From sequence record DQ006814.1: a stretch of DNA of 628 nucleotides; one strand, 5' to 3'. A program made the position numbers and the translations under genes. The notes beneath the pieces were generated by a model, which worked only from the letters and a program-made list of their open reading frames with translations, was not told the origin of the DNA and searched no databases. Positions within the stretch are counted from its first letter, which is position 1. The number at the start of each line of letters is the position of its first letter. This DNA comes from a phage. Positions 25 through 628 of this stretch are shown one piece after another.

Positions 25-628
25 ATGCCTAAATTACCACGTGGTCTGCGTTTCGGAGCCGATAATGAAATTCTTAATGATTTTCAAGAGCTCTGGTTTC
101 CAGATCTCTTTATCGAATCTTCCGACACGCATCCGTGGTACACACTGAAAGGTCGTGTGTTGAACGCTCACATGGACGACTACTTACCTAATGTAAGTGG
201 TCGCCAGGTAAGGCGCACTCCACATCGTGTTACTGTTCCGATTGCCTCTACAGGCCTTCGTCCAGTGACAACTGTTCAGTATGATCCTGCAGCACTATCG
301 TTCTTGTTGAACGTTCGTGTTGATTGGGATTTCGGTAATGGCGACAGTGCGGACCTTGTCATTAAAGACTTTGTGTTCCGCACCTTTGCACCTAAGGATT
401 TCGATTTCTCGAATTCCTTAGCTCCTCGTTATACCCAGGCCTTCTCCGCCTTTAATGCCAAATATGGCGTTATGATCGGTGAAGGGCTCGAGACTATAAA
501 ATATCTCGGGCTTTTACTGCGCAGACTGCGTGAGGGTTACCGTGCTGTTAAGCGCGGCGATTTACGTGCTCTTCGCAGGGTTATCCAGTCTTACCATAAA
601 GGTAGGTGGAAACCGGCTACTGCTGGTA
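25..628 (+). CDS. A2: A2 maturation (attachment) protein, which in Qbeta is also the single-gene lysis protein (MurA inhibitor). N-terminal 201 codons only; 3'-truncated by the window edge (last full codon ends at 627).
   Basis: ATG at 25 preceded by a Shine-Dalgarno element. The frame is open for 201 codons to the window end while the other frames are interrupted by stops. The translation MPKLPRGLRFGADNEILNDFQELWFPDLFIESSDTHPWYTLKGRVLNAHMDDYLPNVSGRQVRRTPHRVTVPIASTGLRPVTTVQYDPAALSFLLNVRVDWDFGNGDSADLVIKDFVFRTFAPKDFDFSNSLAPRYTQAFSAFNAKYGVMIGEGLETIKYLGLLLRRLREGYRAVKRGDLRALRRVIQSYHKGRWKPATAG matches my recollection of the Qbeta A2 N-terminus at most positions. Most nucleotide differences from recalled Qbeta appear to fall at synonymous third-codon positions. 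Confidence 0.93.
   Translation, partial: MPKLPRGLRFGADNEILNDFQELWFPDLFIESSDTHPWYTLKGRVLNAHMDDYLPNVSGRQVRRTPHRVTVPIASTGLRPVTTVQYDPAALSFLLNVRVDWDFGNGDSADLVIKDFVFRTFAPKDFDFSNSLAPRYTQAFSAFNAKYGVMIGEGLETIKYLGLLLRRLREGYRAVKRGDLRALRRVIQSYHKGRWKPATAG
140..160 (+). other. Candidate RNA stem-loop in the genomic plus strand: stem ACACAC (140-145) paired with GUGUGU (155-160), 9-nt loop UGAAAGGUC
   Basis: Perfect 6-bp inverted repeat read directly from the sequence. The same stem, with a one-base loop difference, is present in Qbeta as I recall it. Levivirus genomes are highly structured, but no folding energy was computed. Confidence 0.35.

Follow-up and report, generated by a model that had tools for sequence, protein, structure and literature searches.

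The window, by which we mean the whole stretch of 628 nucleotides that was analyzed, belongs with roughly 90% probability to a natural Qubevirus durum isolate of the BR12/VK lineage, and the 13 amino acid differences that set its A2 protein apart from that of prototype Qβ would be standing polymorphism under purifying selection, filtered in addition by the fold of the genomic RNA. The window covers the end of the 5' UTR and the first 201 of the 420 A2 codons, and in the explanation that we propose, the 13 differences would have accumulated as lineage polymorphism under purifying selection. Most of them are common to BR12, VK, or a metagenome contig, and about half are probably ancestral states lost by the prototype. 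The folded genomic RNA would also act as a filter, admitting changes that fall in loops, that form G-U wobbles, or that come as compensatory doubles; R53Y and G58S, one on each arm of stem-loop 4, and N110D, with a silent change at F118, would be tied to RNA pairing in this way. The window is an ordinary additional genotype of a phage species that is already well sampled, and the gene, its protein structure, and its function are known.

Identity and gene content of the window

The window consists of the following parts.
1–24, forward strand: end of the 5' UTR (last 24 nt), with the Shine-Dalgarno sequence GAGG at 17–20.
25–628, forward strand: start of the A2 maturation/lysis gene, with the ATG at 25–27; 201 codons and one base, the frame being open at the window end.

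The maturation protein A2, present in a single copy, attaches to both the F pilus and the genomic RNA; through inhibition of MurA, it also brings about lysis of the host. The A2 gene of Qβ has 420 codons, the first 201 of which are covered here; in the full-length protein, RNA binding resides in a C-terminal α-region. A blastn search of 50,697 phage records gave 34 matches, all of them to Qubevirus, and the relatives are annotated as A2. The window corresponds to positions ~37–665 of complete Qubevirus genomes, where the A2 coding sequence starts at 61–62 (blastn). The position of the gene also fits the family, A2 being the first gene of the genome with a short 5' UTR and a Shine-Dalgarno sequence directly upstream. 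At the protein level, the A2 product matched the A2 chains of Protein Data Bank (PDB) entries 5VLZ, 5VM7, and 7LHD over residues 1–201 (E = 3.8e-129), and A2 of 5MNT was also matched over all 201 residues of the window. The fragment scored 144.3 bits against Pfam PF03863 (Phage_mat-A; cut-off, 25) and matched PHROG 4286 with E = 9e-50. In a large protein index, the A2 product had no match even though A2 sequences on deposit are 93 to 97% identical to it. We attribute this blank to a gap of the index for the A2 family, given the strong matches in Pfam, PHROG, PDB, and tblastn. Small open reading frames of 34 to 45 amino acids on both strands were also considered as genes and were rejected, as nothing spoke in their favor. 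A single-sequence AF2 model of the 201-residue fragment had a pLDDT of 41.8, which makes it unusable; it showed rough β-strands up to residue ~119 and helices from residue 133.

According to PMC12856241, which cites Cui 2017, residues 1–180 of Qβ A2 are enough for lysis, and the contacts with MurA lie mainly in residues 30–120. The window encodes the complete 1–180 segment, and the identity to Qβ over the 201 residues is 93.5%. We infer that the variant would function like Qβ A2, with pilus binding and MurA inhibition unchanged.

Substitutions relative to prototype Qβ and placement among relatives

The window was compared codon by codon with the prototype reference, for which we used AY099114 and AB971354, whose sequences are identical to each other in this region. 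The coding part aligned without insertions or deletions and contained exactly 13 amino acid differences, leaving 188 of 201 residues identical (93.5%); the PDB sequences 5VLZ and 5MNT gave the identical set of 13 differences. The preliminary description had named 13 substitutions by residue and codon and had put the identity at roughly 93 to 94%. Alignment to the Qβ reference and to other isolates recovered every one of these substitutions at exactly the residues and codons listed, and the reference residues behind them were correct; the range given for the sites, which ended at 600, omits the 13th of them, K194R at 604–606. At the nucleotide level, 48 of 603 positions differed from the prototype (92.0% identity), and 35 of the 48 were third codon positions. 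The Nei-Gojobori method counted 32.5 synonymous and 15.5 non-synonymous differences from the prototype, which corresponds to a dS of 0.268, a dN of 0.035, and a dN/dS of 0.129. The dN/dS between the window and every isolate was in the range of 0.11 to 0.19, and that of other isolate pairs was 0.02 to 0.24. The many synonymous changes and the purifying selection that had been proposed from the sequence were thus both borne out.

The same description had regarded the window as a distinct Qβ-like isolate, which also held: no identical record was present in the phage collection, IMG/VR, or the JGI metagenomes, and the best match was BR12 with 96.7% nucleotide identity. An exact-match scan of IMG/VR for the segment carrying Y53 and S58 found none, and protein-guided scans of IMG/VR and the JGI metagenomes yielded one contig, the same in both. 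BR12 (FJ483842.1, USA), in which A2 has an identical position and length over the window and is annotated as 'assembly/maturation protein', is 97.5% identical in amino acid sequence. It shares M50, S58, T76, D110, K114, V117, D125, A133, V149, and K192 with the window and differs from it at 20 nucleotides of the coding sequence and at five residues (BR12/window: R53/Y, A69/V, A97/V, K194/R, and T198/A). Y53 and V97 occur in one further sequence alone, the metagenome contig (IMGVR_UViG_3300019216_000421 = Ga0179939_1057709, 2890 nt; hereafter the IMG/VR contig). It has 21 nucleotide differences from the window and differs at six residues, at which the contig has Y49, A69, H98, A175, K194, and T198. 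VK (FJ483843, Japan) is 95.2% identical in nucleotide sequence, with seven amino acid differences from the window.

A bootstrapped NJ tree of 17 Qβ-like sequences placed the window in a clade with BR12, the IMG/VR contig, and VK (99.5% bootstrap; 94.5% for the clade without VK). The nucleotide identity of the window to other isolates was 90.5 to 96.7%, compared with 90.9 to 99.2% among the isolates themselves; the records to which the A2 segment is 90.5 to 96.7% identical are classed as Qubevirus durum, the replicase lying outside the window. No other Qβ-like sequence has C273T (silent) or A605G (K194R), and these two are the sole private substitutions of the window. Among the 13 residues, R194 is the sole private one, the other 12 being known from other isolates or the metagenome contig. 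M11 (AF052431) and MX1 (AF059242/NC_001890) represent a divergent branch of Qubevirus durum; their A-proteins are 61 to 64% identical to the window product over all 201 residues, and their nucleotide identity of ~75 to 78% is confined to the 3' 40% of the window. We also observed that the locus tags of NC_001890.1 are those of MX1, although its title is 'Enterobacteria phage Qbeta', and that this RefSeq record matches the window exactly as AF059242 does. It is only ~61% identical to Qβ A2 in the window region, and its use as a 'Qβ reference' would therefore produce a very misleading list of substitutions.

The 13 sites are listed below with the sequences that share each state and, where relevant, the predicted RNA context.
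172–174, forward strand: L50M (CTT>ATG), common to BR12 and the IMG/VR contig, with Ile instead in VK.
181–183, forward strand: R53Y (CGT>TAC), otherwise only in the IMG/VR contig, with Tyr also in M11, MX1, and FI; in the 5' arm of stem-loop 4, pairing is retained by all three bases of the codon.
196–198, forward strand: G58S (GGC>AGT), common to BR12, VK, FrSangria, and the IMG/VR contig; compensatory, base 196 pairing with 184 (silent, L54) and base 198 with 182 (R53Y).
250–252, forward strand: S76T, also in seven other sequences, with the base change falling in a hairpin loop.
313–315, forward strand: A97V, otherwise only in the IMG/VR contig, with the change at an unpaired base.
352–354, forward strand: N110D (A>G at 352), compensated by a silent T>C at 378 (F118), A-U to G-C.
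364–366, forward strand: N114K, also in BR12, VK, the IMG/VR contig, and MX1; in the loop of the operator-like stem-loop 5 (Qβ 393–406).
373–375, forward strand: L117V, only in the BR12/VK clade, with the change at an unpaired base.
397–399, forward strand: E125D, a common polymorphism (of 17 Qβ-like sequences, 8 have Asp); in the consensus fold, the base at the third position bulges out unpaired.
421–423, forward strand: V133A, also in BR12, BZ1, the IMG/VR contig, M11, and MX1; base 422 is immediately 5' of, and just outside, the helix arm that pairs with the Shine-Dalgarno region.
469–471, forward strand: T149V (ACT>GTT), specific to the BR12/VK clade, with the same residue in M11, MX1, and SP; base 469 is still paired in stem-loop 7 (A-U to G-U).
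598–600, forward strand: N192K, also in six others and in M11 and MX1; in the loop of the operator-like stem-loop 9 (Qβ 628–640).
604–606, forward strand: K194R (A605G), the sole amino acid state private to the window among the Qβ-like sequences; MX1 also has Arg.

The origin of these differences in a separate natural lineage was weighed against the alternative that prototype Qβ acquired them during passage or experimental evolution in the laboratory. Laboratory-evolved lines, such as MH108093-104 and GQ153928-31, do make up many of the deposited Qβ records, but 48 differences in 603 nucleotides, 35 of them at third positions, are far above what such lines carry, and the lines themselves are ~92% identical to the window, as is the prototype. 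Moreover, 46 of the 48 nucleotide states also occur in environmental isolates from the USA, Japan, Brazil, and wastewater. We consider a laboratory origin extremely improbable.

An assembly chimera, a recombinant mosaic of Qβ lineages, or a set of sequencing errors could also produce an unusual combination of states. At 12 positions, the window agrees with neither BR12 nor the IMG/VR contig, and at 10 of these it matches more distant isolates. In addition, a private 1-nt deletion lies 5 nt from the window start, where a C between positions 5 and 6 is missing (UAUUUCACUG in 16 of 16 relatives, UAUUUACUG in the window). The discordant sites are, however, scattered single positions, mainly third-position transitions, that form no blocks; the reading frame is intact, only two substitutions are private, and the differences keep RNA pairing far better than random errors would. 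We rejected the mosaic, since the nearest neighbor in every 150-nt sub-window was BR12, the IMG/VR contig, or VK, and a nearest neighbor within one clade throughout gives no sign of recombination. An artifact of any of these kinds is accordingly very unlikely as the source of the 13 differences. The UTR deletion on its own may be genuine variation or may have been introduced by the reads or the assembly; the deleted C falls in a small UTR hairpin loop when nucleotides 1–75 of BR12 are folded alone, and columns 1–7 are unpaired in the consensus fold.

The natural-lineage reading leaves the direction of change to be considered, for which we aligned the Qubevirus A-proteins of M11, MX1, SP, FI, and NL95 as an outgroup. 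The window has the residue of both M11 and MX1 at 53 (Y), 110 (D), 133 (A), 149 (V), and 192 (K), and that of MX1 at 114 (K) and 194 (R). Seven of the 13 sites are thus outgroup-like, and therefore about half of the changes probably occurred on the branch of the prototype itself, which agrees with the outgroup only at 76, 117, and 125. Judging from this alignment, the prototype probably has the derived state at about half of the 13 sites. Tyr53 is the least conservative of the 13 changes, yet it is the usual residue in M11, MX1, and FI. That the prototype is probably the odd one out at these sites, about half of the 13, is relevant wherever laboratory Qβ A2 is taken as the "wild type," as in MurA-binding and display work.

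Predicted pairing of the genomic RNA and substitutions probably coupled to it

The consensus fold calculated with RNAalifold from 15 Qβ-like sequences had 216 pairs in 23 helices, and six pairs showed compensatory changes. On this structure, 18 cells were doubly changed, compared with 6.7 ± 1.9 after shuffling (none of 500 shuffles reached 18) and 0 to 5 in slid controls; this score is circular in that the structure is evaluated on its own source alignment. A second test, free of this circularity, used the minimum free energy fold of Qβ alone, onto which the window sequence was threaded. The 48 differences touched 25 pairs of the Qβ-only fold, of which 20 (80%) remained canonical, compared with 46% in random sets (none of 1000 as good), where the random sets were matched for codon position and transition/transversion class and not for amino acid constraints or phylogeny. 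Under the same kind of random-mutation null, the number of compensatory doubles was four vs 0.67 expected (reached in 13 of 5000). We relied on these pair counts, energies of mutants threaded on a fixed structure being lenient toward broken pairs. The folds of prototype Qβ and the window are nearly the same, with a base-pair distance of 13 over ~226 pairs, and the 13 amino acid and 48 nucleotide differences between the two include the following four compensatory doubles.
182/198: G-C to A-U, second base of R53Y and third base of G58S.
184/196: C-G to U-A, silent L54 and first base of G58S.
234/264, forward strand: C-G to U-A, both changes silent (T70 and P80), with U-G intermediates in TW18 and HL4-9.
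352/378: A-U to G-C, N110D and silent F118.

Three of the four involve amino acid changes, and three of the four have G-U intermediates in other isolates. VK and Qb2_FR have such intermediates for the N110D/F118 pair, a double change that BZ1 acquired independently. The IMG/VR contig offers a further observation of this kind, its R98H (G>A) being matched by a silent C>U at L91 that keeps the pair as C-G to U-A (alignment columns 296 and 318). A search of Rfam matched no family to the window, even at E ≤ 1.

Two of the compensatory doubles lie in one hairpin, which is listed here together with the stem-loops of the cryo-EM model in this range and the predicted arm of a long-distance helix.
177–203, forward strand: hairpin, stem-loop 4; 11 bp, loop CUAAU, codons 51–60 (Qβ nt 213–239; helix 9 of the consensus fold).
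Qβ nt 106–118, 128–140, 220–232, 393–406, 436–449, 492–505, 528–541, and 628–640: cryo-EM stem-loops.
423–438, forward strand: downstream arm of a long-distance helix, codons 133–138, predicted to pair with the Shine-Dalgarno region at 7–21.

The 177–203 hairpin has a predicted energy of -20.1 kcal/mol (z = -4.6), and although 8 of its 11 pairs differ from those of Qβ, all 11 are paired. A hairpin is also present at the place homologous to stem-loop 4 in M11, MX1, SP, and FI. In the Qβ genome as modeled by cryo-EM, stem-loop 4 (220–232) contacts a coat-protein dimer and is listed as a CP-sandwiched stem-loop (PMC8880383, Table S2). With the offset of +36 that converts window to Qβ coordinates, the tip of the 177–203 hairpin is this stem-loop, and all eight cryo-EM stem-loops in range (PMC8880383) coincide with predicted hairpin tips.

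These predicted folds support selection on RNA structure as well as on protein. If the nucleotide changes have been filtered by the folded genomic RNA, then R53Y, G58S, and N110D would be coupled to RNA pairing, and the coupling would reflect selection for genome folding, for contact with the capsid, or for control of A2 translation. By extension, part of the variation in the β-region of A2 that faces MurA and the pilus may be dictated by the genomic RNA instead of the protein, with residues near D52, a reported site of lysis control, carried along as passengers of pair maintenance; we put this forward tentatively, the odds leaning slightly against it. If it is true, the R53, G58, and N110 sites would be a natural handle for separating the RNA-level from the protein-level effects of A2 mutations. 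Amino acid changes that appear tied to RNA in a stem-loop modeled by cryo-EM also advise caution against a purely protein-level reading of A2 missense mutants.

Some of the substitutions, above all R53Y (beside D52) along with G58S and N110D, could instead be adaptive, altering the binding of A2 to MurA or the F pilus and hence lysis timing or host range in this lineage. R53Y is non-conservative and lies in the MurA-contacting β-region, so that it may have a functional effect; it is two base changes away from the BR12 codon, and as it is found in two independent sequences, it is not an error. Eight of the 13 sites fall within residues 30–120, the MurA-contacting stretch as given in PMC12856241 citing Cui 2017, but this enrichment is not significant (Fisher p = 0.26), and the overall dN/dS is only 0.13. 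Tyr53 is also normal in M11, MX1, and FI and is thus compatible with A-protein function, and both base changes of R53Y preserve the pairing of stem-loop 4, which offers a non-adaptive route to the same residue. Adaptive change at these sites is therefore unlikely, and polymorphism filtered by protein and RNA remains the preferred reading.

Presumed por residues and the 5' end of the A2 gene

The por (plates-on-rat) mutations, which affect lysis of MurA-resistant hosts, change what we take to be A2 residues 28, 52, and 125, and the alleles are presumably L28P, D52N, and E125G. Reed et al. in 2013 reportedly attributed the por effect to increased synthesis of A2. The preliminary description had read Leu, Asp, and Asp at these residues of the window, as we also found: L28 and D52 are wild type and identical to the prototype, and D125 is the frequent natural polymorphism (8 of 17). 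If the alleles are as we assume, the window has none of the three. The bases concerned are all paired in the Qβ-only fold (107–89, 178–202 in stem-loop 4, and 398–415), and D52N in the assumed form would break a G-C pair in stem-loop 4. In this predicted fold, the pairing of the assumed por bases fits an effect at the RNA level on A2 expression.

The Shine-Dalgarno region is itself predicted to be paired. The long-distance helix in which it takes part (helix 1 of the consensus fold) has 14 pairs, with 97.6% of cells paired, and the predicted probability that the Shine-Dalgarno sequence is unpaired is 0.05 in Qβ and the window alike. An additional constraint at the RNA level is suggested for the 5' end of A2, where the consensus fold has the long helices 3–6.

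Several smaller observations concern this part of the gene. None of the 13 substitutions falls in residues 1–49 (p about 0.03 under uniformity). Among the 17 Qβ-like sequences, third positions are variable in 7 of 40 codons over codons 1–40 (25–144), compared with 14 of 20 in the next 60 nt. The anti-Shine-Dalgarno sequence CCUC at 424–427 is invariant in 15 of 15 sequences, and the amino acid variants of FrSangria, FrMerlot, and Qb3_FR at residues 137 and 138 are at pair-breaking positions of the Shine-Dalgarno long-distance helix.
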